From: a virus
DNA length: 51,280 nucleotides
Reading direction: 5' to 3' (one strand)
IMG/VR virus record: IMGVR_UViG_3300029703_000007
In this document: piece by piece, positions 4,293 to 51,280 of the stretch
Layout of the letters: each line of letters begins with the position of its first letter
Numbering within the stretch: position 1 is the stretch's first letter
Position numbers and translations under genes: made by a program
Notes under the pieces: model-generated
Database searches by the model: none
Seen by the model: the letters and a program-made list of their open reading frames with translations, nothing else
What the model was told of the DNA's origin: nothing

Positions 4293-4374
4293 ACAAATTC
4301 AAATAGTTAAATTAGTCCTTCCTCGAGGAGGGGGTCGTGCAACCGGAAGGGGCGGTAAAAGTGGACGTGGTTAA
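4285..4374 (+). CDS. Possible 29-aa Arg/Gly-rich upstream ORF (MSKQIQIVKLVLPRGGGRATGRGGKSGRG)
   Basis: ATG 4285 overlaps stop of preceding gene; reads through the SD-masking hairpin and over the GTG 4337 start in another frame; below ORF-track cutoff. Confidence 0.25.
   Translation: MSKQIQIVKLVLPRGGGRATGRGGKSGRG
4317..4332 (+). promoter_or_regulatory. Hairpin CCTTCC-TCGA-GGAGGG masking the GGAGG Shine-Dalgarno of the 4337 start
   Basis: 6-bp stem (one G-U) with TCGA loop; 3' arm is the only SD for GTG 4337. Confidence 0.4.
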
Positions 4375-4618
4375 ACGTAAAGTAATTGCTCTTTGGTTAC
4401 ATTTCTTTTTAAATCGTATTGGTTCTAAACATCCTGAATTTCTTTCTGACTTACTTAATGATTTGAATATTTCAGAACGTCATAAAATTATCATTAAATC
4501 CAGATATGTTGACAAGCTTAAGTTTAAGCAAATACCTGATGTTAAAGGTGTTAATTGTGAATTAAGACAGGTTATGAATTTGCATAAAGAAGTCATAGAC
4601 AAACTTATAAATCTTTAA
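4337..4618 (+). CDS. Small HTH regulator resembling sigma-70 region 4 / LuxR-GerE type (93 aa)
   Basis: LNISERHKIIIKSRYVDKLKFKQIPDVKGVNCELRQVMNLHKEVIDKL matches region-4 HTH pattern; GTG start (alternative GTG 4361). Confidence 0.5.
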   Translation: MQPEGAVKVDVVKRKVIALWLHFFLNRIGSKHPEFLSDLLNDLNISERHKIIIKSRYVDKLKFKQIPDVKGVNCELRQVMNLHKEVIDKLINL

Positions 4619-4760: not shown

Positions 4761-5162
4761 ATGTTTGAAAATAATACATTAAATCAGTACAGCTCAAACA
4801 ATCAAAGTTTTATCGGCTTTGTACAAAATGGAAAAATATTTAATTCTTATGGGCAGCAGCTTGGTTATATCACAGATGAATACAATAAAGCTATTGAAAC
4901 AGCTAAAGGTTTTCAACAGAAATTGATAGAAGCCGGAATACTTGTAAAACCTAAAACACCTGAAGAAATAAATCAGGAATTACAAGAAACGTTAAAACAA
5001 ACTCAAACAATGATGACAGAAATGTCCAATACTATCATTTCCTTAAATGAAAAAGTCAATAAATTAGAGGAGAAGAAAGATGTTCAACAAGCAGTCAATC
5101 CTGTCAATGGCAGGACGATTCTTACCACAAGAAAAGATTCAACTCCTAAGTCAGGCGTATGA
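4761..5162 (+). CDS. Hypothetical coiled-coil protein (133 aa)
   Basis: ORF track; AAAGGGAG SD 4746-4753. Confidence 0.6.
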   Translation: MFENNTLNQYSSNNQSFIGFVQNGKIFNSYGQQLGYITDEYNKAIETAKGFQQKLIEAGILVKPKTPEEINQELQETLKQTQTMMTEMSNTIISLNEKVNKLEEKKDVQQAVNPVNGRTILTTRKDSTPKSGV

Positions 5163-6664: not shown

Positions 6665-7085
6665 AGAATATACATGCTCCGATTCTGAAAAAGATATGTA
6701 TATTTTAACTGAAATGATTGATGATTTTATTTGTGAAGTTAAAACTCTTCATCCTGAAATAGTTAATCATTTTTTAAGAAATTTGCAAATGTATCAGCAT
6801 CCTTTGCGTGACAGGGAGACGGCTGAATATGCAGTTTCAAAACTTAAAAATGAAGACGGTTCCGTTGGAGAACATTGGGATTTTGAAACAACGTCTAAAC
6901 TTGCTGACAAATATGAAATACACGATAAACCTGCGTTCTATTATGTACTCAATATGATTTACAGTGATTTATATGAATCAGGCCGGCCCGATTCAGAGTA
7001 TGTTAAAGATGCTGTAAAATTTATAAATGATAAGGATGCTCCTCATGATAAAGCTGAAAGATATTATCGTGCTATGAATTATTAA
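6642..7085 (+). CDS. Hypothetical protein (147 aa)
   Basis: ORF track; AAGGAGAG SD before ATG. Confidence 0.65.
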   Translation: MKFQEIIKEYTCSDSEKDMYILTEMIDDFICEVKTLHPEIVNHFLRNLQMYQHPLRDRETAEYAVSKLKNEDGSVGEHWDFETTSKLADKYEIHDKPAFYYVLNMIYSDLYESGRPDSEYVKDAVKFINDKDAPHDKAERYYRAMNY

Positions 7086-24189: not shown

Positions 24190-24276
24190 TTCTTAACCTT
24201 TCCGCAATGTAAGCAAATATTGCAATGTCCTCTGAATGTAATCCACTCATGGAACCCCACCCAACAAAATAAGCGT

Positions 24277-24495
24277 CTAATCATCTAAATTATCCCCAGC
24301 TTTTTTTATTGACTTAACAACGCCTTTTACAAGGCTTGAAGTACCTAGTGTTGCGATAGATAATAAACCGTCTGTTTCATCTTTACGGTCGTCTGTAAGG
24401 CTTGACAAATCTTTTCCAAGCTCGCCAAGGCAGCGGATTGGGGTAGATACTAAAGTTGTAATTGATTTAAATATTCCCATCTTTCTCATCCTCAT
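24277..24495 (-). CDS. Hypothetical protein (72 aa)
   Basis: ORF track; several possible Met starts. Confidence 0.5.
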   Translation of the reverse strand: MRMRKMGIFKSITTLVSTPIRCLGELGKDLSSLTDDRKDETDGLLSIATLGTSSLVKGVVKSIKKAGDNLDD

Positions 24496-24847
24496 AAAAA
24501 GTTATTTCATCTTTGTGGACAGGGCGGCAATTTTGATAATAACTATCACCATCTCTTAAATACATATCATCTTCGTTATAGTCTACTAAAATTCCTAATA
24601 CTTTCCTTTCAATATTCCAAAACCAGCAGGGGATTCTATTTTCGATAATATATCCCCAATCTATAGGCTTTTGATAGACTTCCCAATCATTTATGAAAAA
24701 AGAAATATTGCGAAATACATATTCTGTACCACTTTCATCTAAAATTTTATTACCTTTCATATAAATAAAAGTATTTTTGCTCCACAGCGCACTTCTAATC
24801 TTTGCCCCTTTTCTGAACTCGGGCAACAGTTCTTCCAAATATGCCAT
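24467..24847 (-). CDS. DUF2829-like N-terminal module fused to a conserved C-terminal domain (126 aa); paralog of 26250..26633
   Basis: LPEFRKGAKIRSALW...NDWEVY then PIDWGYIIENRIPCWFW...NCRP...TFYE shared with the paralog. Confidence 0.6.
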   Translation of the reverse strand: MAYLEELLPEFRKGAKIRSALWSKNTFIYMKGNKILDESGTEYVFRNISFFINDWEVYQKPIDWGYIIENRIPCWFWNIERKVLGILVDYNEDDMYLRDGDSYYQNCRPVHKDEITFYEDEKDGNI

Positions 24848-25077
24848 TAGTAATCTCCTCCCTCGGCAAGAACATTATCCAACGTTGCAACAATGTTTTG
24901 ATTGGTGAACCCCTCATAGCTGTTCCAATCTGCTTTTGTATGTATAGATACTCCAGCGGAACATCCCCCGCAAAAAGGAACAAGTCCTAAATCGTTCACT
25001 TTCTGTATAGCTTTTTCAAGGCTCGTTAGCGCCTTTACCACCTCTTTAGTGTTATATTTATCATCATGTATCAACAT
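24847..25077 (-). CDS. Hypothetical protein (76 aa)
   Basis: ORF track. Confidence 0.5.
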   Translation of the reverse strand: MLIHDDKYNTKEVVKALTSLEKAIQKVNDLGLVPFCGGCSAGVSIHTKADWNSYEGFTNQNIVATLDNVLAEGGDY

Positions 25078-25912: not shown

Positions 25913-26030
25913 TTCTTAACCTTTCTACAATGTTTAGAGATAAAATTATGCAAAGGAAAATTGCAATTATCAATGCAATCAAGCTCTTTATTTTCCCTTT
26001 GGCAATAATCACAACAATGCTCCCAGTCAT
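25905..26030 (-). CDS. Small TM protein (41 aa), below cutoff
   Basis: Hand translation MTGSIVVIIAKGKIKSLIALIIAIFLCIILSLNIVERLRND; stop overlaps next ATG. Confidence 0.4.
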   Translation of the reverse strand: MTGSIVVIIAKGKIKSLIALIIAIFLCIILSLNIVERLRND

Positions 26031-26056
26031 GGAACCCGAGCCAACAAAGCAAGCGC

Positions 26057-26275
26057 CTAATCATCTACAATCTCCCAATCATCAGCCATAATATCCACAT
26101 CAGATAAAGCCTTACTACAACATCCCGATTTTGTAATAAAACCACTCTCACACCAATCCGGCAGTCTTCCCCAAGTAAAAGCATAACTATCGAGCCATTT
26201 AGCTCTTTTTATATACTTATACTTTCTTACTCCCCAATGTAAAGCCTGTTCAAATCTCATCTTTTTTGCCCTCAT
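26057..26275 (-). CDS. DUF2829-like small protein (72 aa)
   Basis: MRFEQALHWG..YIKRAKW......DIMADDWEIVDD matches the F..A...G..v.R..W ... D..A.DWEIV pattern of DUF2829. Confidence 0.55.
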   Translation of the reverse strand: MRAKKMRFEQALHWGVRKYKYIKRAKWLDSYAFTWGRLPDWCESGFITKSGCCSKALSDVDIMADDWEIVDD

Positions 26276-26633
26276 AAAAAGTTAATTCATCTCTGCGGGC
26301 AGGGCGGCAATTTTTATATAAACTTCTATTCCCTGCGTCATCAAACATAATAAAATCGTATTCAACACCTTTTTCTATTTTTCCCAGAGTTCCGCATATA
26401 GCCCAATTTAAGTTATCATCCCAAAACCAGCAAAGGCACCTATTTTCGATGATATAGTTCCAGTCAATAGGCTCTTGATAAAATTCCCAGTCAGAAGCTT
26501 CCAATTCTTTATTTGTAAAAATAAGACCTTTTTTAAAATCAGATATTTCAACAAAATCATTATCTCCCCAGTATTTACGCCTAATTTTAGCACCGTTTCT
26601 GAACTCGGGCAGCAGTTCTTCTAAATATGACAT
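26250..26633 (-). CDS. DUF2829-like N-terminal module fused to a conserved C-terminal domain (127 aa; ORF-track start 26732)
   Basis: AAGGAG SD before ATG 26633; MSYLEELLPEFRNGAKIRRKYW...SDWEFY; paralog of 24467..24847. Confidence 0.6.
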   Translation of the reverse strand: MSYLEELLPEFRNGAKIRRKYWGDNDFVEISDFKKGLIFTNKELEASDWEFYQEPIDWNYIIENRCLCWFWDDNLNWAICGTLGKIEKGVEYDFIMFDDAGNRSLYKNCRPARRDELTFYEGKKDEI

Positions 26634-27088
26634 TCTTTTCTCCTTAAAGCCGAAACAATTAAACCCCAAGTAGGATTCTCCCTTTCTAAAAGCGGCGCAG
26701 GGCACACCAGAGTTACAAGCTCGTAGTAACATGAAAAATCTTTTTTATCCAAATCAATTTCCAAAGCACCAGCCCAAAGGGGGATTTCTTCTTTTTTCAA
26801 AAGACCTTTAGGAAAGGCATAATAAATTTCATTTGAAAACAATCTCGCGGCGACTTGTTTCCGACAGTTGTTCTTATCCCTTAAAAAATCAGACCGACTA
26901 ACCTTAATTTCGATTGTTACTGTCTTATTTCCTTTTTCAGGACTAATACAAAATAGGTCGGCTCTTTTTTCGCTTGTATTGCCATATCCAGAACCAAAAC
27001 GAAATTCAGGAACACAGATATAATGGTCGAAAGGATATGTTCTTGGTAAAATATCAAGAATTGCCGCTGTTTTTTCTTTATCGGTCAT
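26621..27088 (-). CDS. PD-(D/E)XK nuclease-fold protein (MmcB-like) (155 aa)
   Basis: ADLFCIS...VTIEIKVSRSDF = D...ExK core. Confidence 0.5.
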   Translation of the reverse strand: MTDKEKTAAILDILPRTYPFDHYICVPEFRFGSGYGNTSEKRADLFCISPEKGNKTVTIEIKVSRSDFLRDKNNCRKQVAARLFSNEIYYAFPKGLLKKEEIPLWAGALEIDLDKKDFSCYYELVTLVCPAPLLERENPTWGLIVSALRRKECHI

Positions 27089-27833: not shown

Positions 27834-28202
27834 TTACAAAGCTAGCACCGGGCGAACGTAAGGATAGTCGTTGCCCTTACCGCCCCAGTCCAAACCGGAA
27901 CTGTTGCCAAAGCTAGAGGTCCACGCGTAGCCGTAACTGCACTCCGACGAAGACCAGTACCAACTTTTTTTCAACGGCTCGCCGCCCGCTCTGACGAGGG
28001 CTTTGTTGACAGCATCCAAATTTTCGGCAATCGCCATCCACTCGTTTTTTGTCGGTATGCCAATTTTTACGGCGTCATACCAACTCATCTGTTGCGGCTT
28101 GTCCTGCAGCGCAATAATAATTACCCGTCCGTTGATAGCGGCGGCGCGAACGCCGACCGGCTGGCCGTTCTTTTTCACAATCATTACTCTGAATTTTGAC
28201 AT
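27834..28202 (-). CDS. DUF1566 (Lcl C-terminal-like) domain protein (122 aa)
   Basis: IPTKNEWMAI...SWYWSSSE...YAWTSSF...YVRPV matches the W.lPt..E...yWSS...aw...f...vR.v pattern. Confidence 0.65.
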   Translation of the reverse strand: MSKFRVMIVKKNGQPVGVRAAAINGRVIIIALQDKPQQMSWYDAVKIGIPTKNEWMAIAENLDAVNKALVRAGGEPLKKSWYWSSSECSYGYAWTSSFGNSSGLDWGGKGNDYPYVRPVLAL

Positions 28203-28216
28203 CGTTTATTTCCTCT

Positions 28217-28654
28217 TCAAAAATAAAACACCGGGCGAACGAATAGATTGGTGTAGTTGTACTTATAGTCGCTGTACAAACCGTATCTGTCGCCTAGGTA
28301 AGAGTTCCACGCGTAGCTGCCGGAGCTCTCCGACGAAGACCAGTAAGTGCCGTTCAACATCTTGCCGCCAGCGTTTCTCAGCATTTTGTTGATAGTGCTT
28401 AAGTTATCGCAAATAAATTTTAGTTCATGTTTCATCGGCAGGCGGCAATAGTGTTCTTCACACCAAACTTTTGCCTCGAACCAGTCCATTTTCTCTGGAG
28501 CATCTTCTAACGCAAGGTCAAAATAATGCTGGTTATCAATATAGCAGCGTATGGCGACAGCTTTGCCATCTTTTGTTACCATCTCAATTGTTCCGGCGGT
28601 TTTTGCCGGCTCAAAAGCCAAATTATCCTCATAATCCGGTGCATTATTAGTCAT
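28217..28654 (-). CDS. DUF1566 domain protein (145 aa), distinct N-terminus
   Basis: LPMKHELKFI...TYWSSSES...YAWNSYL...FVRPV. Confidence 0.65.
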   Translation of the reverse strand: MTNNAPDYEDNLAFEPAKTAGTIEMVTKDGKAVAIRCYIDNQHYFDLALEDAPEKMDWFEAKVWCEEHYCRLPMKHELKFICDNLSTINKMLRNAGGKMLNGTYWSSSESSGSYAWNSYLGDRYGLYSDYKYNYTNLFVRPVFYF

Positions 28655-30476: not shown

Positions 30477-30507
30477 GTTCGAATCCTTTTCTTGTGTTTA
30501 TACTTAA

Positions 30508-30536
30508 TATATAACATAAATTATTAAAATTGTCAA
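30508..30536 (-). promoter_or_regulatory. Leftward consensus promoter copy 1 (TTGACA-17-TATATA)
   Basis: Minus-strand TTGACA = 30531-30536, TATATA = 30508-30513; part of a ~58-bp block duplicated at 32224-32281. Confidence 0.65.
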
Positions 30537-30557
30537 TAGGCTTTTTAATAATTTATG

Positions 30558-32220: not shown

Positions 32221-32252
32221 TTTTCGAATCCTTTCTTTATGTTTATACTTAA

Positions 32253-32281
32253 TATATAACATAAATTATAAATGTTGTCAA
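32253..32281 (-). promoter_or_regulatory. Leftward consensus promoter copy 2 (TTGACA-17-TATATA)
   Basis: Minus-strand TTGACA = 32276-32281, TATATA = 32253-32258. Confidence 0.65.
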
Positions 32282-32402
32282 TACTTTATGTTAAAAATCT
32301 GTTGGCTAAAGGTGTTAAAAATGTTAAAAATGTTTTTAATAAAATGACTTCATTCTTCTGAAACCCTTGGTATACTTGGAATCTAGAGAGTTGTTAATAT
32401 TT

Positions 32403-32428: not shown

Positions 32429-32592
32429 TACAACTTACAACTTTTAAAATCGCGACTTGAAAACGAAAAAAACGACGTTTCCATCCTATCAACATGACCA
32501 ACACACAACTAAATTATAATAACTTTCGTAACATAAATTATTAATGTTGTTAATGTTGTTAATGTTAATAAGACGTACGATGTTAATGTTAA

Positions 32593-36206: not shown

Positions 36207-37685
36207 ATGGTTAAAAAATCAGAGATGTTAAAACGGTCACCAGACATTGAAACTATGGTACCGTATTGGGATAAAGTAACAGATATTCTTAACGGAAAAG
36301 AAGCTATAAAATCTGCTGGAACGGCTTATATGCCCATGTTTCCTGACGAAACGACCAAAGATTATGATTTCAGATTACAAATCAGTAAATTTACAAATAT
36401 TTATCGTGATACTGTTGAAGGTCTTGCAAGTAAACCGTTTCAGAATGAAATAACACTTTTAGGTGGTAAAAATCTTCCAGAGGAATTGATTGATTTTGCT
36501 GAAAACGTAGATGGTGCGGGTAATAATTTAACTAATTTTGCAGCTTTAACTTTTTTTAACGGTATTAATTACGCTCTCGATTGGATATTTGTCGATTATC
36601 CTTCTGTACCAAATGCTGAAGTTATTACTGTTAGTGAAGCTAAAAATATGAATTTACGTCCGTTTTGGGTACATATTTTAGCTAAAAATGTAATTGAAAT
36701 TAAAACGGAAATGCAAGGTTCAGAGCAAATTATAACATATTTTAAACATATGGAACCGGGTTTTGGCGATGACCCCATGCATGTCAGAGAGTTTATAAAA
36801 AATGAAAATGGACAAATCGAATGGCGACTTTATGTTGAAACATTAAACAATAAAGATGAAGAAGAATTTGTTGTAGAACAAGAAGGGACATTGAGTATTG
36901 ATTTTATCCCAATGGTACCTTTTATTACCGGTCGTCGAGATGGTAAAAGTTTTAAATTTTATCCACCTATGTCCGATGCCGCAGACTTGCAGATAACGCT
37001 TTATCAGAACGAATCAGCGCTTGAATATATCAAAATGCTTACAAGTTACCCGATGCTTGCAACTGACGGTACAAGGGTACCTATGGAGGCTGACGGTAAG
37101 ACACCTAAAAAAGTTGCTGTCGGACCTAACAGAGTGCTTTACGGTGTCCCGCAAGACAGTGGTGTTGGAGGCAGTTGGAAATATGTTGAACCGCAAGCAA
37201 ATAGCTTGGAATTTTTACAGAAAAATATTGATAAGACTAAAAATGACCTGCGCGAACTGGGTCGGCAACCGCTTACCGCACTTTCAACACAGTTGACGAC
37301 AGTTACAACTTCTATTGCCGCTGGTAAAGCCAAATCCGCTGTTACAGCATGGTGTTTTAATCTTAAAGATGCTTTGGAAAATGCTTTACTAATAACAATG
37401 AAATGGATGAATTCGAAATTTGAACCAGAAGTTAACGTTTATACTGGTTTTGATAACGTACTTGATAATGAACAGGATGTTGAAGAATTAGGCAAAGCTC
37501 GTGAACGTGGGGATATTTCATTAGAAACTTATTGGGAAGAATTAAAAAGACGTAAAGTTCTTTCCCCTGAATTTGATATTGAAAATGAGAAAAAAAGATT
37601 ACTTGAGGATATTCCGGTAGATGAACCGGATATTAATTCTGGAAATAAAGCAAATAACAATTTTAACCAAGACGAGGAAATGTAA
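36207..37685 (+). CDS. Portal protein (492 aa)
   Basis: Size and position after TerL; tight coupling. Confidence 0.8.
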   Translation: MVKKSEMLKRSPDIETMVPYWDKVTDILNGKEAIKSAGTAYMPMFPDETTKDYDFRLQISKFTNIYRDTVEGLASKPFQNEITLLGGKNLPEELIDFAENVDGAGNNLTNFAALTFFNGINYALDWIFVDYPSVPNAEVITVSEAKNMNLRPFWVHILAKNVIEIKTEMQGSEQIITYFKHMEPGFGDDPMHVREFIKNENGQIEWRLYVETLNNKDEEEFVVEQEGTLSIDFIPMVPFITGRRDGKSFKFYPPMSDAADLQITLYQNESALEYIKMLTSYPMLATDGTRVPMEADGKTPKKVAVGPNRVLYGVPQDSGVGGSWKYVEPQANSLEFLQKNIDKTKNDLRELGRQPLTALSTQLTTVTTSIAAGKAKSAVTAWCFNLKDALENALLITMKWMNSKFEPEVNVYTGFDNVLDNEQDVEELGKARERGDISLETYWEELKRRKVLSPEFDIENEKKRLLEDIPVDEPDINSGNKANNNFNQDEEM

Positions 37686-38443
37686 TGAGTAGAGGATGGA
37701 AATTTGATGATACTGGAAACATCATTGTAAAAGATGGTAACCCGGTTTATATTAATACTAACGGTGATGAACAAACTGTATCTGTAGATACTATTGCTAA
37801 TTTAAACAGAGAAGCAAGAGATAACAGACTTGCAAAAGAAGAAGCTTTGGATAAGCTTAAACTTTTTGAAGGTATTGACCCGTCAAAAGCTCGTGAAGCT
37901 TTGGAAACTGTTAGTAAAATTGATAACAATAAACTTATTGAAACTGGTAAGGTAGATGAACTTAAATCTCAAATTACTTCACAGTTTCAGACTCAGTTAG
38001 ATGAAAAAACCAAAGCTTTATCCGAATTGCAGGGTAAATACGAAAATATGATTATTGACAATGTATTTGCTAACAGTGATTTCATTCGTAACAACGTTGC
38101 TGTTCCAAGAGATATGTTTGAAGCTAAGTTTCGTAACAATTTTAAAGTTGAAAATGGGCAGGTAACTGTCTATGACAATAATGGAAATCGTCTTTACAGT
38201 AAAGAGAAAGCGGGCGAATACGCAACCCCGGAAGAAGCTTTGCAGATTTTAACCGAAAGTCATCCTCAGCGTGATAGCATTCTTCGTGCTAACGCAGGAA
38301 ACGGTACGGGAAGTTCTGGTGCTGGTGGTGGCAATGGCGGTTCGCGATACATGCAGCGAGGAGTTTTTGAAAAACTTTCGCCTCAGCAACAGTTGGAATA
38401 TGCTAAGAAAATGGCAAAAGGTGAAATTACCTTGACAGATTAA
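37685..38443 (+). CDS. Scaffolding protein (252 aa)
   Basis: Coiled-coil, charged, between portal and capsid genes. Confidence 0.6.
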   Translation: MSRGWKFDDTGNIIVKDGNPVYINTNGDEQTVSVDTIANLNREARDNRLAKEEALDKLKLFEGIDPSKAREALETVSKIDNNKLIETGKVDELKSQITSQFQTQLDEKTKALSELQGKYENMIIDNVFANSDFIRNNVAVPRDMFEAKFRNNFKVENGQVTVYDNNGNRLYSKEKAGEYATPEEALQILTESHPQRDSILRANAGNGTGSSGAGGGNGGSRYMQRGVFEKLSPQQQLEYAKKMAKGEITLTD

Positions 38444-38486
38444 AAAGTAACTGTTAAAGTATAGTTGCTTTTTTCTAGGATTAGAT

Positions 38487-38579
38487 GAGCGCATCAGGTT
38501 GGATGACCTAAATCAATCAATCGGTGCGCTTTTTTTACGCACCAAATAAAGTTTAACAAAATTTGAAAGGTGCTGATTT
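38487..38579 (+). promoter_or_regulatory. Conserved structured leader, copy A (upstream of major capsid gene)
   Basis: ~88% identical to 42690-42780; segments GAGCGCA, GGTGCGC, CGCACC and SD GGTGCT conserved. Confidence 0.7.
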
Positions 38580-39725
38580 ATGGCTAATATTTTGACTAAA
38601 CTCATCCCTGACCTGTATCAGAATTTGGATGAAGTTTCTCGTGAGCTTACTGGTTTTCTGCCGTCAGTAGCTCGTAATTCTTCAGCTGCTCGAGCTGCTC
38701 TTGGTGAATCTGTTACTGTACCGGTAAGTACGGCTATGGAATCTGGAGATGTTACCCCGTCTATGAATGTTCCTGAGCCTGAAGATTTTACAATGGATAA
38801 TGTTGCTATTCAGATTACGAAATCTCGTAATGTTTCTTTTGGTTTGACTGGTGAAGAATTTCAGGGTCTGAACAATGGTGTTGGAGCTAATTACATTCTT
38901 GGAGAAAACATCAAACAGGCTGTTCGTACTTTGGCTAATGAAATGGAAAAAGACGTTGCAATTGAAGCGGCAATTTCTTCTTCCCGTGCTTATGGTACGG
39001 CTGGAACTACCCCGTTTGCAGCTAATTTGTCTGACGCTGCTCAGATTAAGAAAATTATGGACGATAATGGAGCGCCGATGAGCGGACGTTCTTTGATTGT
39101 CGATACTACGGCCGGTGTTAATCTTCGTTCTTTGACTCAGTTGACTAATGTTGGTGATGCTGGTACTAATATGACCTTGAGACAGGGTGAATTGCTGAAT
39201 ATGTTCGGTATTTCAATTAAAGAATCTGCTGGTATTCAGAATGTTGCTCAGTCAGTGATTGAAGGGGTTACTCTTGAAGCTGTCGATGCTGGTGCTACTG
39301 AATTGACAATTAAAGCTGCTACCTCTGGTTCTCTGAAAGCTGGTGATATTATTACTATTGCTGGAGATGATAACAAATATGTAGTCGCCGTTGCTAACAG
39401 TGCTTTGTCTCCAGCTGGTAAAATTAAAATTGCTAAACCGGGTCTCCTTCATGGAGCAGCTGATGGTGCGGCGGTTACTGTTGTTGCGGCTTCTGCTCGA
39501 AACATTGCTTTTACGCAGAATGCTATTCAGTTGGTTACTCGTGCTCCGGCTCTTCCGGCTGGGCGTGATGCGGCTGTCGATAGTTATATTATGACCGACT
39601 CACGTTCGGGTATGGCTTTTGAAGTCCGTGTATATCAGGGCTACAGAAAGATGCGTATGGAAGTTGCCTGCGCATGGGGTGTTAAGGTTATTAAACCTGA
39701 ACACGTCGTAACCTTGCTTGGTTAA
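38580..39725 (+). CDS. Major capsid protein, P22-coat-like (381 aa)
   Basis: Position, size, downstream terminator; N-terminal MANILTKLIPDLYQNLDEVSRELTGFLPSV resembles P22-type coat proteins. Confidence 0.8.
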   Translation: MANILTKLIPDLYQNLDEVSRELTGFLPSVARNSSAARAALGESVTVPVSTAMESGDVTPSMNVPEPEDFTMDNVAIQITKSRNVSFGLTGEEFQGLNNGVGANYILGENIKQAVRTLANEMEKDVAIEAAISSSRAYGTAGTTPFAANLSDAAQIKKIMDDNGAPMSGRSLIVDTTAGVNLRSLTQLTNVGDAGTNMTLRQGELLNMFGISIKESAGIQNVAQSVIEGVTLEAVDAGATELTIKAATSGSLKAGDIITIAGDDNKYVVAVANSALSPAGKIKIAKPGLLHGAADGAAVTVVAASARNIAFTQNAIQLVTRAPALPAGRDAAVDSYIMTDSRSGMAFEVRVYQGYRKMRMEVACAWGVKVIKPEHVVTLLG

Positions 39726-39735
39726 GGTAAAAAAG

Positions 39736-39769
39736 GGGGAGTAGACCTCTTTACTCCCCTAATTTTTAT
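39736..39769 (+). terminator. Rho-independent terminator after the capsid gene
   Basis: GGGGAGTA(39736-39743)/TACTCCCC(39752-39759) then TAATTTTTAT. Confidence 0.75.
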
Positions 39770-41836: not shown

Positions 41837-42271
41837 ATGGTTGACTTTAATGTTGTAATAGATAAATTTGTTGCTGATAGTAAAGAAAAAATGCTTGCAG
41901 TTGTTAAAAACAGTATTCAGGAAGTTGTTCAAGATGCTCAGACACCTATTGCTAAAGGTGGTAAAATGCCTGTTGATACAGGTTTTTTACGTTCTTCAGG
42001 TACCGCAAATTTAAATAATACTCCATCTGGTGAAATACTCGGTAGAAAACGTTTACCGGGGGAAGAAGGTGTGTTAGCTGATTATGCTGTAGATGATAAA
42101 GCGAGTTATCTTACCGATACACTTATTAAAATGAAGATTGGGGATACTTTCTTTTTTGGTTGGACGGCTATTTATGCTAAACGTCAAGAAGTTTATAATG
42201 GCTTTATGGAATCGGCTATTATGAATTGGCAAAATATTGTAAATAATCAGGTTAGGAGATTGCATAAATGA
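41837..42271 (+). CDS. HK97 gp10-like neck/tail-completion protein (144 aa)
   Basis: PVDTGFLRSS motif. Confidence 0.65.
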   Translation: MVDFNVVIDKFVADSKEKMLAVVKNSIQEVVQDAQTPIAKGGKMPVDTGFLRSSGTANLNNTPSGEILGRKRLPGEEGVLADYAVDDKASYLTDTLIKMKIGDTFFFGWTAIYAKRQEVYNGFMESAIMNWQNIVNNQVRRLHK

Positions 42272-42669
42272 TTGAATCTAAAATTATCGACCTTTTGCAA
42301 AAGCATGTTACTAAAGCCGTTGCCGGTTTTTTTCCGGTTAAATATTTAAATACTAATATTGAAGCGACTGATTCATTTTGGGAAATTGTTTATATTCCTA
42401 ATAATGTTGAAAATGAATTTTGGGATAAAGGAAAAACATATCAAGGCATTTTAAGATTGATATTACATTGGCCGGCCGATAATAGGGGTATCTACACTCC
42501 TCTTCAAGAAGCTGAAAGAGTCGCCGCTGAATTTGCTAAAGGTCTTGAATTATTTAGTAACGATGTTAAAGTCATAATTACCGATAATCCAAATTTAACC
42601 AGTCTTAATGAAGATGACGGGAAATTGTTAATACCCTTGACAATTCGATATTTGTGTTTTAAGCTATAA
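42268..42669 (+). CDS. Tail terminator-like protein (133 aa)
   Basis: Position immediately upstream of major tail gene. Confidence 0.5.
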   Translation: MIESKIIDLLQKHVTKAVAGFFPVKYLNTNIEATDSFWEIVYIPNNVENEFWDKGKTYQGILRLILHWPADNRGIYTPLQEAERVAAEFAKGLELFSNDVKVIITDNPNLTSLNEDDGKLLIPLTIRYLCFKL

Positions 42670-42689
42670 ATCGCATGGAAAATATCTCC

Positions 42690-42780
42690 GAGCGCACTAG
42701 GTTGGATGACCTAAAAAATCAATCAATCGGTGCGCTTTTTTACGCACCAAATAAAATTTTAATATTTGAAAGGTGCTAAA
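42690..42780 (+). promoter_or_regulatory. Conserved structured leader, copy B (upstream of major tail gene)
   Basis: See 38487-38579; GAGCGCA 42690-42696, GGTGCGC 42729-42735, CGCACC 42743-42748, SD GGTGCT 42772-42777. Confidence 0.7.
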
Positions 42781-43533
42781 ATGGCGAATACAAACGCATT
42801 CTCAAAAATTTATGTTTGCCCCGACCCGCAAAATAATGAGTTGACCGCTGATGATTATGCAGGGTTGAGTTGGGTTTTGATTAAAGGCGTAGGTAATCTT
42901 GGTGAAACTGGTAAATCTACTAATATTTTAGTTTATCCTACATGGGAAACTAGTGTAGCAGATAAAGGTAAAGGTATTACTGATGCAGGTTCCCCAATTC
43001 TTGAAGTTGCTCGTGACCCGAAAGATGAAGGTCAGAGAATTTTGAATAATGCAGCTGCCGTTGGTAATAATAATAATTATGCTTTTAAAATTGAACGTTC
43101 GGATGCCCCGATTGGTGGTACTGGTACAATTATGTATAATCGTGGTCTTGTTGTTGGCCCGACTCGTCCGAATGGACAAAACGAAGATTTTGATTTGGAA
43201 GTTTTTACCCTTGCTTTGGTTCAGGAAGAGGTTGTTGTTCTCCCGACAACTGGTGTTGCCGCTCCGGTATTGACTGCCGCTCCCGCTGTTAGTGGAACAG
43301 CAGAAGTTGGTCAGACTTTAACTTGTTCAACCGGTACATTTACTGGTGAATCACTTGCTTATAGTTATCAGTGGTTTGCAAATGGTATTATTGTATCAGG
43401 AGCAATTGAAAGTACTTATGAATTAACCGCAAACGACAAAGGAAAAGTTTTCTCTTGTCGTGTAACCGCTCGAAATAACGGTGGGTCTGCTACTGGTTTT
43501 TCGAATACTACTACAGCCGTTACTGAAGCGTAA
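42781..43533 (+). CDS. Major tail protein with C-terminal Ig-like domain (250 aa; ORF-track 42766)
   Basis: Position before the G/GT chaperones; C-terminal SGTAEVGQTLTCSTGTFTG...YSYQWFANG...FSCRVTA Ig-like repeat. Confidence 0.75.
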   Translation: MANTNAFSKIYVCPDPQNNELTADDYAGLSWVLIKGVGNLGETGKSTNILVYPTWETSVADKGKGITDAGSPILEVARDPKDEGQRILNNAAAVGNNNNYAFKIERSDAPIGGTGTIMYNRGLVVGPTRPNGQNEDFDLEVFTLALVQEEVVVLPTTGVAAPVLTAAPAVSGTAEVGQTLTCSTGTFTGESLAYSYQWFANGIIVSGAIESTYELTANDKGKVFSCRVTARNNGGSATGFSNTTTAVTEA

Positions 43534-50800: not shown

Positions 50801-51280
50801 AAAAGATGTTGAAAATTTTAGAGTTACTGTTACAAACGGATTAGCGCTTTTTGAATGGACTCCGACTGATGATGTTGACATATCTCATTATGTAATTAAA
50901 TATTCTTTGGATACAGAAGATGTTAGCTGGGAAAGTGCACAGACAGCTGTTGCAAGAGTTACCAGCAATACGGTTACCATGATTATACATCGAGGTATGT
51001 ATCTTATTAAAGCAGTTGATTTAATGGGTTTTGAAAGTAAGAATCCAACTACTATTATTTCAATTGACAGCGGTGCTTATAAAAATGTTGTTGAAGAATT
51101 GATACAGCATCCAAATTGGGAAGGGAGAAAAGAAAATACATACGCAAGTGGTGGTATTTTAACTTTATCTCCTGAAAAATCCCAAGGATATTATTATTTT
51201 AATCCAGAACCTTTAGATTTAGGAGAAGTATACGAATGTTCTTTAACAGCTGATGTTAAAAGTAATGCTGGAAACCGTTC
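47796..51280 (+). CDS. Tail-tip protein: gpI-like N-terminal region fused to gpJ-like host-specificity protein (about 1346 aa in total, continues at 1..655)
   Basis: ATG 47796; hand translation shows no in-frame stop in the stretches checked; gpI-like IIGLNYIPTGGDDGKAVMQVIVTIAAIV...; J-like core; FN3 GSTPPKDVENFRVTVTNGLALFEWTP; not in the ORF track because it has no stop inside the window. Confidence 0.85.
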   Translation, partial: MLNEDIIVQKSVLPFRQDFETLRLQDCKTPQEIVNKLVPFNFVNCKLIVTLDGEILPEEKWGQNLKKGQIIGLNYIPTGGDDGKAVMQVIVTIAAIVTTAYLGSIAEDAIVAGNYGTAALASAGIIAVSMVSSMAMNALMTTPKQSDGTLGYKDSQTQFVEGASNSINKFGVIPVNLGTNRLFPPQAALPYTETSGNDQYCRQLFTYGYGKVTVIERKLGETVLDNYDYVELEDKLNADLNSGTSLYANDVYQEDFSIKVTKEESPYLRTTQKDCDECILDFTFQGLVNGITQGKYAGLKLKTTVQFEIQYAPVNTENWSTSINGATIQEQSINADISVYLLYRFLNSWVCRRYFLALNTQTGGISIHYVDSQVHKLEYPSLSSENVYLGYYENGSFHDLRQNLVGSSIESIDDFIVTTDNSDKSNALITVGSGNILGSTSMMTVTDATSRVLRVSRRIVFPTRGQYQIKVNRLTDDSNIDSLLNDSYWTALKSITYRNPVNFSDISGTAMRIKATDQLNGTVNSYNAIVSTLIKSYDPDKDLWVDGVASSNPADIFRYVLQSPAFAKHEQITDDKIDLEKLKEWWIYCNSLNLTFNKVVDSDTSIDDVLNDICAAGVATLSKVNNIFSVVIDNERPYVKGLVTPRNSWDYKGNISYPELPDALRVEFRNAEVGYNTDERIVYMDGFDENNAKLFERLEFSSCTNADLAYWYGRRYFATALLQPETHTFKMDFEHLTFNRGDRINLVNDVILVGVGQGRIKELITDDENNVTGFVIDDEVNIPTSKNFAVRIRDNNGKGFNYYLLKQFVGVSNSFTFAQSLTAENAPAIGSLCAFVEDGKELDLIITQIKTTSNETATITAVDYAPARFTPIEEFPEWSSNITIPGDFYKPYAPELNGEIKSDESVMIRNSDGSLTSIMIIPLKNRNENSVIPVIQVKITGATEWFIPNTLKNDSNELVLTGLSDGSYYDISIRYQRQTGLQLLSDALYINNVKFVGGSTPPKDVENFRVTVTNGLALFEWTPTDDVDISHYVIKYSLDTEDVSWESAQTAVARVTSNTVTMIIHRGMYLIKAVDLMGFESKNPTTIISIDSGAYKNVVEELIQHPNWEGRKENTYASGGILTLSPEKSQGYYYFNPEPLDLGEVYECSLTADVKSNAGNR
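51182..51280. repeat. Second copy of the terminal overlap (equals bases 1-99)
   Basis: Direct comparison. Confidence 0.95.

Follow-up and report, generated by a model that had tools for sequence, protein, structure and literature searches.

In leaders controlled by CsrA/RsmA proteins (glgC, hcnA), as in the RNAs CsrB and RsmZ/Y/X, GGA lies in short hairpin loops that are often paired ∼20 nt apart; the sites follow A(N)GGA or CANGGANG, with an unpaired A and a hexaloop, and the mark of a CsrA-regulated leader is a spacing of 10-63 nt between two or more sites, one of them overlapping the Shine-Dalgarno (SD) sequence. The RAT-terminator antitermination systems of BglG, SacY and LicT and the trp and pyr attenuators have in common a promoter, a short leader and a GC-rich hairpin followed by a U tract, with an alternative helix on the 3′ strand of the terminator and a conserved hairpin abutting its 5′ strand. 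In phage Mu, the SD of the late gene mom is held in a helix, and the small phage protein Com binds an upstream hairpin and opens the structure. Guanidine-II (mini-ykkC) riboswitches consist of two ACGR-loop hairpins that dock on the ligand, whereby the SD is freed. The SAS/ESAS elements of Cluster K mycobacteriophages are repeats placed directly 5′ of several start codons, with a suspected translational role, and the scaffolding protein of phage P22 regulates itself post-transcriptionally in a manner that is unexplained. Finally, the TwoAYGGAY RNA (RF01731), found in gut metagenomes and Gammaproteobacteria, was predicted to bind CsrA (PMC4333381).

How very unequal amounts of virion proteins are set from one long late operon is largely unexplained in tailed phages. 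The window analysed here (the whole stretch of 51,280 nucleotides, IMG/VR virus record IMGVR_UViG_3300029703_000007) is the circular, ∼51.2 kb genome of a phage in which a leader block is present exactly twice, once running up to the ATG of the major head gene and once to that of the major tail gene. An initial annotation, made by reading the letters alone, had described a block that recurs at about 88% identity with small indels in A/T runs, each copy ending at the ATG of an abundant virion protein that starts MAN, and four short segments common to both copies. Global alignment of positions 38487-38579 (93 nt) with 42690-42780 (91 nt) bore out this description: 81 positions are identical (84% of alignment columns, 87-89% of bases), the differences are mostly A/T-run indels, both genes open with ATG GCN AAT and have head and tail matches, and direct reading found GAGCGCA, GGTGCGC(TT), CGCACC, GGTGCT and the hairpin AGGTTGGATGACCT identical in both copies. 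A 23-nt core pattern with up to three mismatches matched exactly twice, at the two copies (0 matches expected from shuffles), and a whole-leader covariance model likewise picked out, within the window, 38483-38581 and 42686-42784 and no other site, each in + orientation. The parts of the two copies and their surroundings are as follows.

38432 to 38460, + strand: predicted promoter of copy A (promoter scan), with -35 TTGACA at 38432-38437, a 17-nt spacer and -10 TAAAGT at 38455-38460
38474 to 38485, + strand: hairpin hp1, UCUA[GGAU]UAGA, in copy A only (hairpin scan)
38487 to 38495, + strand: segment 1 of copy A, GAGCGCAUC, 5′ strand of helix P1 (minimum-free-energy and centroid folds)
38496 to 38509, + strand: core hairpin hp2 of copy A, AGGUU[GGAU]GACCU, conserved family-wide (hairpin scan)
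38510 to 38522, + strand: A/U-rich linker of copy A, AAAUCAAUCAAUC (minimum-free-energy folds)
38523 to 38536, + strand: segment 2 of copy A with its U tract; GGUGCGCUU at 38523-38531 is the 3′ strand of P1 and the SD mimic, and U7 occupies 38530-38536
38538 to 38543, + strand: segment 3 of copy A, the anti-SD CGCACC, able to pair with segment 2 or with the SD
38569 to 38582, + strand: segment 4 of copy A, the SD GGUGCU at 38569-38574, and the ATG at 38580 (sequence, folds)
38580 to 39725, + strand: major head (capsid) gene, P22-coat-like (phrog_283, E 3e-90; Pfam P22_CoatProtein PF11651, E 2e-19)
39735 to 39760, + strand: terminator-like hairpin right after the capsid gene, an 11-bp stem with 5 GC pairs and a T-rich tail (terminator scan)
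42637 to 42665, + strand: predicted promoter of copy B (direct sequence reading), with -35 TTGACA at 42637-42642, a 17-nt spacer and -10 TAAGCT at 42660-42665
42690 to 42698, + strand: segment 1 of copy B, GAGCGCACU (folds)
42698 to 42713, + strand: core hairpin hp2 of copy B, UAGGUU[GGAU]GACCUA (hairpin scan, folds)
42729 to 42741, + strand: segment 2 of copy B, GGUGCGCUU, with its U6 tract (nascent fold)
42743 to 42748, + strand: segment 3 of copy B, CGCACC
42772 to 42783, + strand: SD of copy B, GGUGCU at 42772-42777, and the ATG at 42781 (sequence, folds)
42781 to 43533, + strand: major tail protein gene (phrog_158, E 3e-20; 61% identical to P106B_28)

A TTGACA/17 nt/TAnnnT promoter motif, absent from the initial account, was found 30-50 nt 5′ of each copy. 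That of copy A scored 10/12 matches in the promoter scan, carries TG at 38452-38453 (an extended -10) and overlaps the final codons of the scaffold gene; transcription would start at ∼38467, and from the putative starts the leaders would extend ∼110 bases to the capsid and tail-tube ATGs. The copy B promoter lies under the threshold of the scan, sits within the end of the tail-terminator gene and keeps its position in relatives, with the -10 variants TAATAT, TACACT and TAAGAT. For copy A, TTGACA-17-TAnnnT occurs at the same position in all AT-rich relatives, and the predicted promoter upstream of both copies is conserved in coding as well as non-coding contexts. Together, the promoter at 38432 and the hairpin at 39735 would delimit a short capsid transcription unit.

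The initial annotation had proposed that segment 2 pairs with either segment 1 or segment 3, and segment 3 alternatively with the SD, in an attenuator-like arrangement. Folding of both copies, as it had suggested, yielded leaders far more stable than shuffles (z -3.9 and -4.4 for the two copies; 0/200 shuffles as stable), with P1 plus 3:4 as the optimum. The full leaders folded at about -32 kcal/mol in this form, at about -27 kcal/mol with hp2 forced and at about -22 kcal/mol with segment 1 blocked. Segments 1 and 2 form a long GC-rich hairpin of -20 to -22 kcal/mol followed by U7 in copy A and U6 in copy B, the nascent RNA to the end of the U run having -21.9 and -22.3 kcal/mol, respectively. 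The 3′ part of the linker can also pair with GGUUGGAUGA, by which P1 becomes an 18-bp hairpin that buries GGAU. With this extension, which had gone unseen, the 1:2 hairpin and its U run look like an intrinsic terminator. The 2:3 helix (GGUGCG:CGCACC, -8 to -9 kcal/mol) reuses the 3′ strand of P1 and is mutually exclusive with 1:2. In copy A, 2:3 has -8.1 kcal/mol and 3:4 has -9.3 kcal/mol, and 2:3 forms when segment 1 is blocked; under the same constraint the optimum of copy B keeps 3:4, with 2:3 alone isoenergetic (-9.0 for 2:3 vs -8.1 kcal/mol for 3:4). Forcing hp2 alone left P1 intact in silico. The second GGAU hairpin of copy A, hp1, had also been missed; it would lie ∼7 nt from the transcript 5′ end and is weakly conserved in the clade of the window phage, being kept in L004/L032 and L025 and lost in L001.

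We then asked how these pairings fare in relatives. The same 1:2 / 2:3 / 3:4 topology was found, with different but compensating sequences, in phages whose capsid is 52-64% identical. Nine lineages were compared, Rhizobium phage P106B among them, and the full leader adopts 1:2 plus 3:4 in 9/9; after removal of the 5′ half, 2:3 appears in the optimal fold in 7/9 and a free-SD structure lies within ∼3.5 kcal/mol of the optimum in 9/9. The antiterminator 2:3 is optimal or near-optimal in 9/9 lineages once segment 1 is blocked or absent. The strands of P1 differ between the window phage (GAGCGCAUC:GGUGCGCUU), L050 (GGAGCACC:GGUGCUCU), L039 (GGGUGAAGUGC:GCGCUUCACUC) and L044 (GAAACGAAGCGC:GCGCUUCGUUUC) and remain complementary in each, segment 1 showing compensatory and wobble changes among relatives. 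The SD AAAGGUGCU is kept ahead of both genes across relatives, and where it changes, SD, anti-SD and SD mimic shift jointly from GGUGC/GCACC/GGUGC to GGCGC/GCGCC/GGCGC; in L044 and P106B an altered anti-SD is accompanied by changes in the SD and segment 2. The most variable sites are those directly after ACCU. All 22 full-type leaders of relatives (22/22) are ordered as long hairpin, U-rich tract and SD-sequestering helix; the U-rich tract after P1 is present in most relatives and interrupted in the tail copies of L048 and L038. In an alignment fitted to the model, 97.7% of cells are paired, compared with at most 47% when partners are slid, and double changes are seen in three pairs (0.2 in shuffles). 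The covariation that the annotation had recommended looking for is therefore present in P1, SD, anti-SD and SD mimic. Because the topology recurs with compensating sequences in these relatives, the attenuator-like reading is supported at the level of predicted structure: its pairings are conserved with compensation in nine lineages, and the sequences suggest a switch between them. Orthologous copies across genomes are more alike than the two copies inside one genome, which indicates that the duplication is ancient, not recent. A recently duplicated promoter without an RNA-level role, named by the annotation among the cases that would defeat its proposal, fits poorly with this age and with the RNA pairing kept in relatives. 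Both L039 copies are altered in parallel, which would fit a shared reader.

The small hairpin between segments 1 and 2, which the initial annotation mentioned in passing, is indeed present in both copies; far from incidental, it is the most conserved part and the core of a family. Y[GGAU]R tetraloop hairpins on freely covarying stems are carried in 1-3 copies, 5′ of a scaffold, capsid or tail gene, by prophages of alpha-, beta- and gamma-Proteobacteria; 13 of the element-positive prophages reside in Betaproteobacteria and 5 in Alphaproteobacteria. E. coli phage HK639 has such hairpins too, in its late operon before the scaffold gene. The sources of the element are as different as rumen metagenomes and cultured phages of E. 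coli, Klebsiella and Rhizobium. Across 80 genome loci, GGAU outnumbers every other tetraloop by a wide margin in the 220 nt that precede capsid genes (33, vs at most 9 for any other), and GGAT was flanked by at least 4 bp of complementarity in 52% of cases in upstream windows and in 3.5% elsewhere (Fisher p 3e-65, a value that overstates independence as the compared sequences are related by descent). In an unselected alignment the covariation score was 0.49, compared with 0.21 for shuffles and at most 0.26 for slid partners. GGAU is the rule in the loop, with GGAC rare and GGAG absent; the closing pair of the loop on the + strand is 22 times UG and 3 times GU; and the orientation is always that of the downstream gene. 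Many relatives have 2-3 hairpins, the last adjoining the SD, and enterobacterial scaffold leaders have three GGA-loop hairpins and a GGAG SD. The 17-mer AGGTTGGATGACCTAAA matched seemingly unrelated viral contigs; chance was discarded as the cause, since the capsid that these contigs encode is 50% identical and its leader contains the hairpin. P22, Acinetobacter phage qsb1 and Pasteurella phage Pm86 are without the element, and a DNA similarity search of the leader against 50,697 phage records gave no match. In agreement with the annotation, which recognized no known class, Rfam 15 at gathering threshold gave nothing in the window or in 11 related loci, TwoAYGGAY, rsmX/Y/Z and mini-ykkC included. 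GC-rich prophages carry the hairpins without the four-segment switch, often just past a terminator and adjoining the SD, and for this reason the primary role of the GGAU hairpin could be simpler than switching.

Taken together, the predicted structures make it most likely that a structured leader gates capsid and tail-tube expression. The form that we prefer, with a probability of about 0.45, is a leader that is OFF by default, by a terminator and by SD sequestering, and that is opened by a factor reading the GGAU hairpin. Each block would be the 5′ mRNA leader of a transcript from its own sigma70-type promoter, beginning ∼110 nt before the start codon, and would behave as a two-state RNA. In the favoured state, segments 1 and 2 would pair (P1, extendable over the GGAU hairpin) and the GC-rich hairpin with U6-7 would halt much of the transcription, while on read-through transcripts segment 3 would pair with the SD and block ribosomes. 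In the alternative state, segment 1 would be unavailable and the SD-mimicking segment 2 would capture segment 3, leaving no terminator and a free SD. The Y[GGAU]R hairpin, beside segment 1 and inside P1, would be the site of a trans-acting factor that tips the balance to the open state, most likely a protein that is synthesized or released late in infection and, in the lineage of the window phage, not CsrA. As a result, the two most abundant virion proteins would be made in bulk only at the right time. The single GGAU hairpin of copy B, the persistence of P1 when hp2 alone is forced and the interrupted U tracts of L048 and L038 speak against the switch model, and the proteins common to the window phage, HK639 and Klebsiella phage ST405-OXA48phi1.3 are structural only, with no non-structural candidate factor among them.

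This arrangement shares with the BglG/SacY/LicT, trp and pyr leaders an upstream promoter, a GC-rich hairpin with a U tract, an exclusive antiterminator and a conserved hairpin beside the 5′ strand of the terminator, all of them predicted. In contrast to those systems, it lacks a RAT sequence, a conserved leader peptide and any known antiterminator gene, PRD-type or other, and its predicted anti-SD:SD layer would tie translation to the same choice. With Mu Com/mom it shares, again by prediction, an SD held in a helix and a hairpin just upstream; it differs in having no evident Com homologue, two (or three) target genes and a terminator-like module. The SAS/ESAS elements are likewise repeated conserved sequences at the start codons of several phage genes, but their sequence is unrelated, they have many copies per genome and Actinobacteria hosts, and they lack the terminator/anti-SD architecture.

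Several other readings were weighed against the two-state leader. On one of them, which we consider unlikely although not negligibly so, the block is a cassette that works without any factor: a strong internal promoter and a stable hairpin would boost two high-demand genes, the hairpin insulating the ribosome-binding region, stopping incoming upstream transcription and protecting the mRNA 5′ end, and the GGA of the exposed loop would be a weak SD-like landing or standby site for the 30S, with the alternative pairings tuning rather than switching. The element does precede just those genes whose products are required by the hundred (scaffold, capsid, tail tube), and a partner found in every cell, for example the ribosome, would suit its presence across alpha-, beta- and gamma-proteobacterial hosts. 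The scaffold leaders of P106B and L108 offer no SD-like element 5-10 nt from the AUG other than the loop GGA; promoter-bearing leaders place the first hairpin ∼3-10 nt from the inferred transcript start; and in the simple two-hairpin leaders of GC-rich prophages hp2 lies at -49 to -63 from the capsid AUG, close to the 5′ edge of the 30S footprint. However, pairing with the anti-SD gives no explanation for a loop that is GGAU or rarely GGAC and never GGAG, a most stable fold that is predicted to terminate and to pair the SD would be odd for maximal output, and the co-variation of SD, anti-SD and SD mimic indicates selection on the alternative pairings themselves. More doubtful is the view that the short RNAs of ∼65-70 nt ending at the U tract are themselves the product, CsrB/RsmZ-like decoys that would draw a GGA-hairpin-binding repressor away from the complete capsid and tail messages. 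Rsm/Csr sponge RNAs are likewise built of GGA-loop hairpins and a terminator, the terminator-like hairpin and U run come ∼65 nt after a near-consensus promoter, and the best sub-threshold Rfam match at a related leader was rsmX, a weak similarity (21.8 bits vs a threshold of 56, E 0.14). Yet the conserved block takes in segment 3 and the SD as well and ends only at the start codon, needless for a free-standing sRNA, and the hairpins of GC-rich relatives have no promoter or terminator of their own; we know of no binding protein for such decoys.

The presence of GGA in the short loops of hp2 in both copies, of hp1 in copy A and of the family at large might also point to a host CsrA/RsmA-family protein that binds the hairpins and represses or times the structural genes, which we hold to be improbable. 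GGAUG agrees with the 3′ half of the CsrA SELEX consensus, and the three-hairpin enterobacterial scaffold leaders with their GGAG SD also speak for it. In the element, GGA-loop hairpins often come in pairs 18-25 nt apart, near or at the SD, which is the textbook arrangement (site definition in PMC4333381). In copy A the two hairpins are 22 nt apart, copy B has one, and the SD AAAGGUGCU contains no GGA. Immediately 5′ of GGA stands a C or U that pairs with the R after GGAU, not a conserved unpaired A, and the loop is a strict tetraloop instead of one of 6 nt, so that the CsrA loop context CANGGANG is not reproduced. Moreover, csrA is almost entirely absent from Betaproteobacteria, S. meliloti is without a chromosomal csrA, and alphaproteobacterial hosts too are for the most part devoid of it (PMC7366521), at odds with the 13 betaproteobacterial and 5 alphaproteobacterial element-positive prophages. 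A tblastn search with four CsrA/Rsm proteins found nothing at E <0.07 in the window genome, any fetched locus or P106B. CsrA was accordingly dropped as the general reader. The TwoAYGGAY RNA is similar in its two hairpins with YGGAY in terminal loops and differs in being free-standing and sRNA-like with AYGGAY hexaloops; its model missed the window and the 11 related loci at gathering threshold. We regard as very improbable a small-molecule or ion riboswitch made of tetraloop hairpins, analogous to guanidine-II, with which the element shares short tandem hairpins, an invariant tetraloop, a preferred closing pair, covarying stems, a variable linker and a sequesterable SD: guanidine-II hairpins have ACGR loops, are always paired and serve guanidine detoxification genes, whereas here the loop sequence differs, single hairpins are common (copy B and many capsid leaders), the genes serve virion structure and not metabolism or transport, and no Rfam riboswitch model matches. 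Least credible of all is a DNA-level element, that is, a duplicated promoter/operator at which a phage regulator would bind, for instance the 4337-4618 product, put forward by the annotation on its likeness to sigma region 4. A promoter does belong to each repeat, and by eye that product resembles sigma region 4, but it has no Pfam, PHROG or PDB relative, the conserved block is downstream of the promoter, and the duplication is ancient. A binding site on DNA also fits poorly with a loop that alone is fixed while stems covary freely, with an orientation that always matches the downstream gene, and with the many U.G pairs, which work on the + strand only and are A.C mismatches on the opposite strand.

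Returning to the gated leader, we considered what might sense or read it. Short ORFs cover segment 1 and hp2 in copy A (8 codons) and, in copy B, end beside the tail-gene ATG (35 codons); leader-peptide attenuation was rejected as their frames differ and their start codons are absent in the close relatives L001, L003 and L004. Among capsid-homologous loci, the element and the scaffold (DUF6651) co-occur as 37 : 6 : 1 : 41, a relation seen in several capsid clades. Since the hairpins lie right beside the scaffold gene on either side, the link is explained by cassette exchange; the scaffold was set aside as reader on this ground and because L040 and L047 have tail-leader hairpins without that scaffold/capsid. 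The annotated putL-like RNA of HK639 shows no GGAU-loop hairpins and no similarity, the GGAU hairpins of HK639 being separate from it; the HK022/HK639 put antiterminator RNAs lie directly downstream of early promoters. Nor does the element resemble a lambda-type nut site, in which boxA lies 5′ of boxB and an N-like protein takes part: its loop is a 4-nt GGAU as opposed to the GNRA-like pentaloop of boxB, and the only boxA-like string, GCGCUUUUUUUA (UGCUCUUU in L050), is 3′ of the hairpin and absent from GC-rich relatives. GGUUGGAUGACCU differs by one mismatch from GGUUGGAUCACCU, the 16S rRNA 3′ end, but only GGAU survives in variant hairpins, and the likeness is probably a coincidence. A loop-AUCC pseudoknot was likewise discarded, as downstream AUCC pairing exists in some leaders only and is sterically unlikely for a 4-nt loop.

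It is possible, if on balance doubtful, that the GGAU hairpin is the operator of a new, host-independent circuit for scaffold, capsid and tail tube that is read by something other than CsrA. Such a circuit may extend to siphophages of alpha-, beta- and gamma-Proteobacteria and to their three stoichiometrically dominant virion proteins. One candidate reader is a universal component, for example the free 30S subunit, in which case the leader in the window would be an attenuator that senses ribosome availability without a leader peptide; another, by analogy with the P22 scaffolding protein, is a structural protein that reports assembly status.

The element marks exactly the high-copy genes, has a simple signature, a GGAU tetraloop on a covarying stem, and is absent from Rfam. 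If the device works as predicted, control of transcription and of translation would be coupled in ∼100 nt, which would make it a useful part in synthetic biology and give access to the timing of late genes. A further lesson is that a GGA-loop hairpin is not automatically a CsrA site. Lastly, spurious ORF calls lie on such leaders, P106B_07 and P106B_08 for example, and the element can be used to flag them.

A global alignment of the 93-nt block at 38487-38579 (copy A) with the 91-nt block at 42690-42780 (copy B) gave 81 identities, the differences lying mostly in A/T runs, in keeping with the repeat of about 95 nt that the initial annotation had described in front of the capsid and tail genes. 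As it had also proposed, the genes that follow encode the major head and major tail proteins, and both start MAN. The features of this region are as follows.

37685-38443, scaffold gene (DUF6651), upstream of copy A
38487-38579, + strand, leader copy A
38580-39725, major head protein, P22-coat-like, downstream of copy A
39735-39760, strong terminator-like hairpin directly 3′ of the capsid gene; its flanks are T-rich and A-rich, and the scan called it a terminator on either strand
42268-42669, tail terminator gene, upstream of copy B
42690-42780, + strand, leader copy B
42781-43533, major tail protein, downstream of copy B

A search for the 23-nt core pattern with up to 3 mismatches returned two sites only in the window, where chance predicts none, and a whole-leader covariance model gave exactly two matches, both on the + strand. 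Because bases 1-99 are identical to bases 51182-51280, an exact 99-nt direct repeat at both ends, the window represents a circularly assembled phage genome of ~51.2 kb (about 51,181 bp); the contig is thus a complete genome in a circular or terminally redundant assembly.

Each block is preceded, ~50 nt upstream, by TTGACA, then 17 nt and a TAnnnT hexamer. In the promoter scan the copy A promoter scored 10/12 with an extended −10, and that of copy B, with TAAGCT as −10, was weaker. Relatives carry at the same positions TTGACA with TAAATT, TAATTT, TAATGT, TATTAT, TAATAT, TACACT or TAAGAT, and the position is kept both where the −35 overlaps the upstream gene and where it is non-coding. Given these predicted promoters, each block should be the 5′ leader of a transcript starting ~110 nt before the start codon. 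Together with the hairpin at 39735-39760, the promoter at 38432 would make the capsid gene its own short transcription unit. The minus strand carries three copies of an early-promoter block (TTGACA, 17 nt, TATATA and a leader) at 30478-30538, 32223-32283 and 32529-32554, which drive the early genes of that strand; use of canonical sigma70 promoters by the phage is evident from these three conserved blocks.

Both copies were present in six viral contigs of one metagenome, with capsid proteins 66-91% identical, and one or both in the loci L025, L029, L038, L048 (a 54-kb contig in a rumen 'Alphaproteobacteria' MAG) and L049 (an 18-kb relative of L048). The covariance model found two matches per close-relative genome, only before the capsid and tail genes. 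Orthologous copies are 83-92% alike, compared with 80-83% between the two copies of one genome, so the duplication is older than these phages; this excludes a recently duplicated promoter, which the initial annotation had named as a refuting option. The two L039 leaders (2683-2782 and 6907-7004) are 78% alike and only 60-68% alike to their orthologues, and share derived changes (P1 GGUGAAG.., hairpin GGUC..GAC), a parallel change which suggests that the capsid and tail leaders undergo gene conversion or concerted evolution. Rhizobium phage vB_RglS_P106B (P106B; Rigallicvirus, NC_023566; loci L130 and L136) is related to the window phage across the whole genome, with amino-acid identities of 59% for TerL, 56% for portal, 55% for scaffold, 54% for capsid, 61% for tail, 56% for DNA polymerase, 52% for helicase and 42% for primase. 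The nearest matches in bacterial 'genomes' were contigs binned into rumen Alphaproteobacteria MAGs, and host assignment is uncertain because the MAG-binned L048 looks like a whole phage genome.

The leader contains segments 1 (GAGCGCA), 2 (GGTGCGC(TT), which mimics the SD), 3 (CGCACC, anti-SD) and 4 (the SD, GGTGCT). Both copies were much more stable than shuffled sequence (z about −4). In the predicted optimal fold, segments 1 and 2 pair over 9 bp (helix P1); GGUUGG:UCAAUC adds further pairs, giving an 18-bp hairpin (−20 to −22 kcal/mol) that runs straight into U7 or U6, and segment 3 pairs with the SD in both copies. Since this fold combines a terminator-like hairpin with a paired SD, the leader would on paper be OFF by default. 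Forcing the hairpin AGGUU[GGAU]GACCU between segments 1 and 2 cost ~5 kcal/mol and left P1 intact. Blocking segment 1 cost ~10 kcal/mol; copy A then formed the 2:3 helix, and the optimum of copy B retained 3:4, with 2:3 alone isoenergetic (−9.0 vs −8.1 kcal/mol).

The mutually exclusive 1:2, 2:3 and 3:4 topology put forward in the initial annotation is kept across lineages whose strands differ yet remain complementary. P1 encloses the hairpin and is followed by a U-rich tract in L039, L050, L044, L046, L048 and P106B, its strands varying between lineages with complementarity kept (GGAGCACC:GGUGCUCU; GGGUGAAGUGC:GCGCUUCACUC then U8; GAAACGAAGCGC:GCGCUUCGUUUC; AAUAAAGCGCAC:GGUGCGCUUUAUU; GCGGCGCGC:GGCGCGC). 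All 22 of 22 full-type leaders folded into a long hairpin, a U-rich tract and an SD-sequestering helix, in that order. With the 5′ half removed in silico in nine lineages, 2:3 was in the optimal fold of seven, and each of the nine had a free-SD structure no more than about 3.5 kcal/mol above its optimum. An SD of GGUGC goes with GGUGC in segment 2 and GCACC in segment 3, and an SD region of GGCGC (P106B) or GGUGU (L044) with GGCGC and GCGCC; in L015 the SD is provided by P1's own 3′ strand. This cross-lineage comparison is stronger evidence than the model-fitted alignment (97.7% of cells paired, vs ≤47% for slid partners), since the latter leans towards the model and its close-clade pairs are mostly invariant.

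The small hairpin had been noted as a minor component. It is present and far from incidental: more distant relatives keep only this hairpin, with its GGAU (rarely GGAC) loop, while the stem changes freely (GGUC..GACU, GACU..AGUC, GGCC..GGCC, GAUC..GAUC, GGGCU..AGCCC, GGGUC..GACCC, UGGCC..GGCCA). Scanning the capsid alignment against one genome per bacterial species yielded 80 loci, in whose 220 nt upstream GGAU was the commonest hairpin tetraloop (33, vs ≤9 for any other; 8-fold enriched). Complementary flanks of 4 bp or more bordered 74 of the 141 GGAT tetramers lying up to 200 nt upstream of a capsid or tail homologue, vs 347 of 9866 elsewhere. In an unselected alignment of the 114 distinct sites among these upstream ones, 60.5% of cells were paired (42% in shuffles, ≤43% for slid partners), the covariation score was 0.49 (0.21 and ≤0.26) and double changes occurred in 6/6 stem pairs. 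The closing pair is mostly Y-R (C-G, U·G, U-A); U·G is common and G·U rare, which indicates a structure meaningful on the sense strand only, as RNA. Hairpins occur in 1-3 tandem copies, loops 18-25 nt apart. They precede the capsid gene and, in many of the prophages, the scaffold gene as well; at the latter they usually come directly after an intrinsic terminator, with the last hairpin adjoining the SD.

Recorded hosts span Alphaproteobacteria (Mesorhizobium, Phyllobacterium, Xanthobacter, Azospirillum), Betaproteobacteria (Cupriavidus, Variovorax, Aquitalea and others) and Gammaproteobacteria (Pseudomonas, Shewanella, Serratia, Erwinia, Photorhabdus). Among cultured phages, GGAU hairpins precede the scaffold gene in E. 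coli phage HK639, and both scaffold and capsid genes in Klebsiella phage ST405-OXA48phi1.3 and Rhizobium phage P106B; the element is absent from P22, Acinetobacter qsb1 and Pasteurella Pm86. The element is real, conserved, present in many phages and unannotated. The P106B capsid leader (4856-5102) holds two GGAU hairpins and GCGC-rich segments; P106B_07 and P106B_08, annotated as ORFs on top of it, are unlikely to be genes, and the ATG at 5095, preceded by the SD-like AAAAGGCGC, is the more likely capsid start. The scaffold leaders of HK639 (L129, ~4975-4990), L122, L125 and L127 have a third hairpin, GGCC[GGAA]GGCY, just before a GGAG SD; with three GGA-loop hairpins within ~80 nt, enterobacterial scaffold leaders are the most CsrA-like version of the element.

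Most likely, the leader responds to a factor. By default P1 and the U tract would end many transcripts and segment 3 would hold the SD; occupation of the GGAU hairpin and adjoining segment 1 would prevent P1, whereupon segment 2 would capture segment 3 and both transcription and translation could proceed. We infer activation rather than repression because near-consensus promoters precede the genes of the two most abundant virion proteins, yet the stable leader fold is OFF. This mechanism, which is plausible, would resemble that of a terminator/antiterminator attenuator to which an anti-SD translational switch is added. The repeat, the conserved promoters, the folds, the kept topology and the covarying hairpins are computational results; termination, SD occlusion, switching and the factor itself are inferences.

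Among the alternatives, a factor-independent booster or standby cassette carries most weight, and short terminated decoy RNAs come next. A purely anti-SD-pairing role would fit two scaffold leaders where the loop GGA is the sole SD-like element near the AUG, but leaves unexplained why the loop is never GGAG. Host CsrA, third in weight, is the obvious candidate reader, its sites being paired GGA-loop hairpins close to the SD (PMC4333381). However, the loop context is unlike the CsrA consensus, and the element occurs in Betaproteobacteria, from which csrA is almost entirely missing, as is a chromosomal csrA from S. meliloti (PMC7366521); the window, the fetched loci and P106B all lack a gene for a CsrA homologue. 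A small-molecule switch ranks lower, and a DNA-level site, at odds with the sense-strand asymmetry of the closing pair, lowest. The initial annotation had suggested as binder the product of 4337-4618, for which we found no link to the leaders; this 93-aa protein has a sigma-region-4-like look (..ISERHKIIIKSRYVDKLKFKQI..GVNCELRQVMNLHKEVIDKL) and no Pfam, PHROG or PDB relative.

Proteins common to the window phage, HK639 and the Klebsiella prophage are structural only. DUF6651 scaffold and element co-occur strikingly (37:6:1:41, across several capsid clades), but the hairpins flank the scaffold gene, and L040 and L047 have tail-leader hairpins without DUF6651; this protein is not supported as reader. 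Leader peptides are not conserved, which dismisses a leader-peptide reading, and the putL-like RNA of HK639 is unrelated. The element matched no Rfam family and fell outside CsrA leaders, put and nut; the initial annotation, too, had not recognised it as a known class. We would class it as a new cis-regulatory RNA family, of a general kind already known.

Some further observations concern the same genomes. Within the CDS 41837-42271, positions 42157-42170 form a UGGUU[GGAC]GGCUA hairpin ~100 nt before the tail-terminator gene, with counterparts at the matching position in three distant relatives (L039 6369, L040 6269, L046 5964), in the last two with the stem UUGGUU..GGCUAA. This may be due to conservation of the encoded W-L-D-G, or the hairpin may be another member of the family. 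In capsid leaders of GC-rich prophages (e.g. L056, L064, L070, L077; 55-65% GC), the SD is separated from the last GGAU hairpin by 25-40 nt of strikingly C/A-rich, G-poor sequence; this may serve ribosomes as an unstructured landing pad or be rut-like and load Rho. In the minus-strand early gene blocks, 24243-24848 and 26023-26634, and likewise 27867-27959 and 28253-28345, are diverged tandem duplications (73-85% identity) of paralogous small genes.
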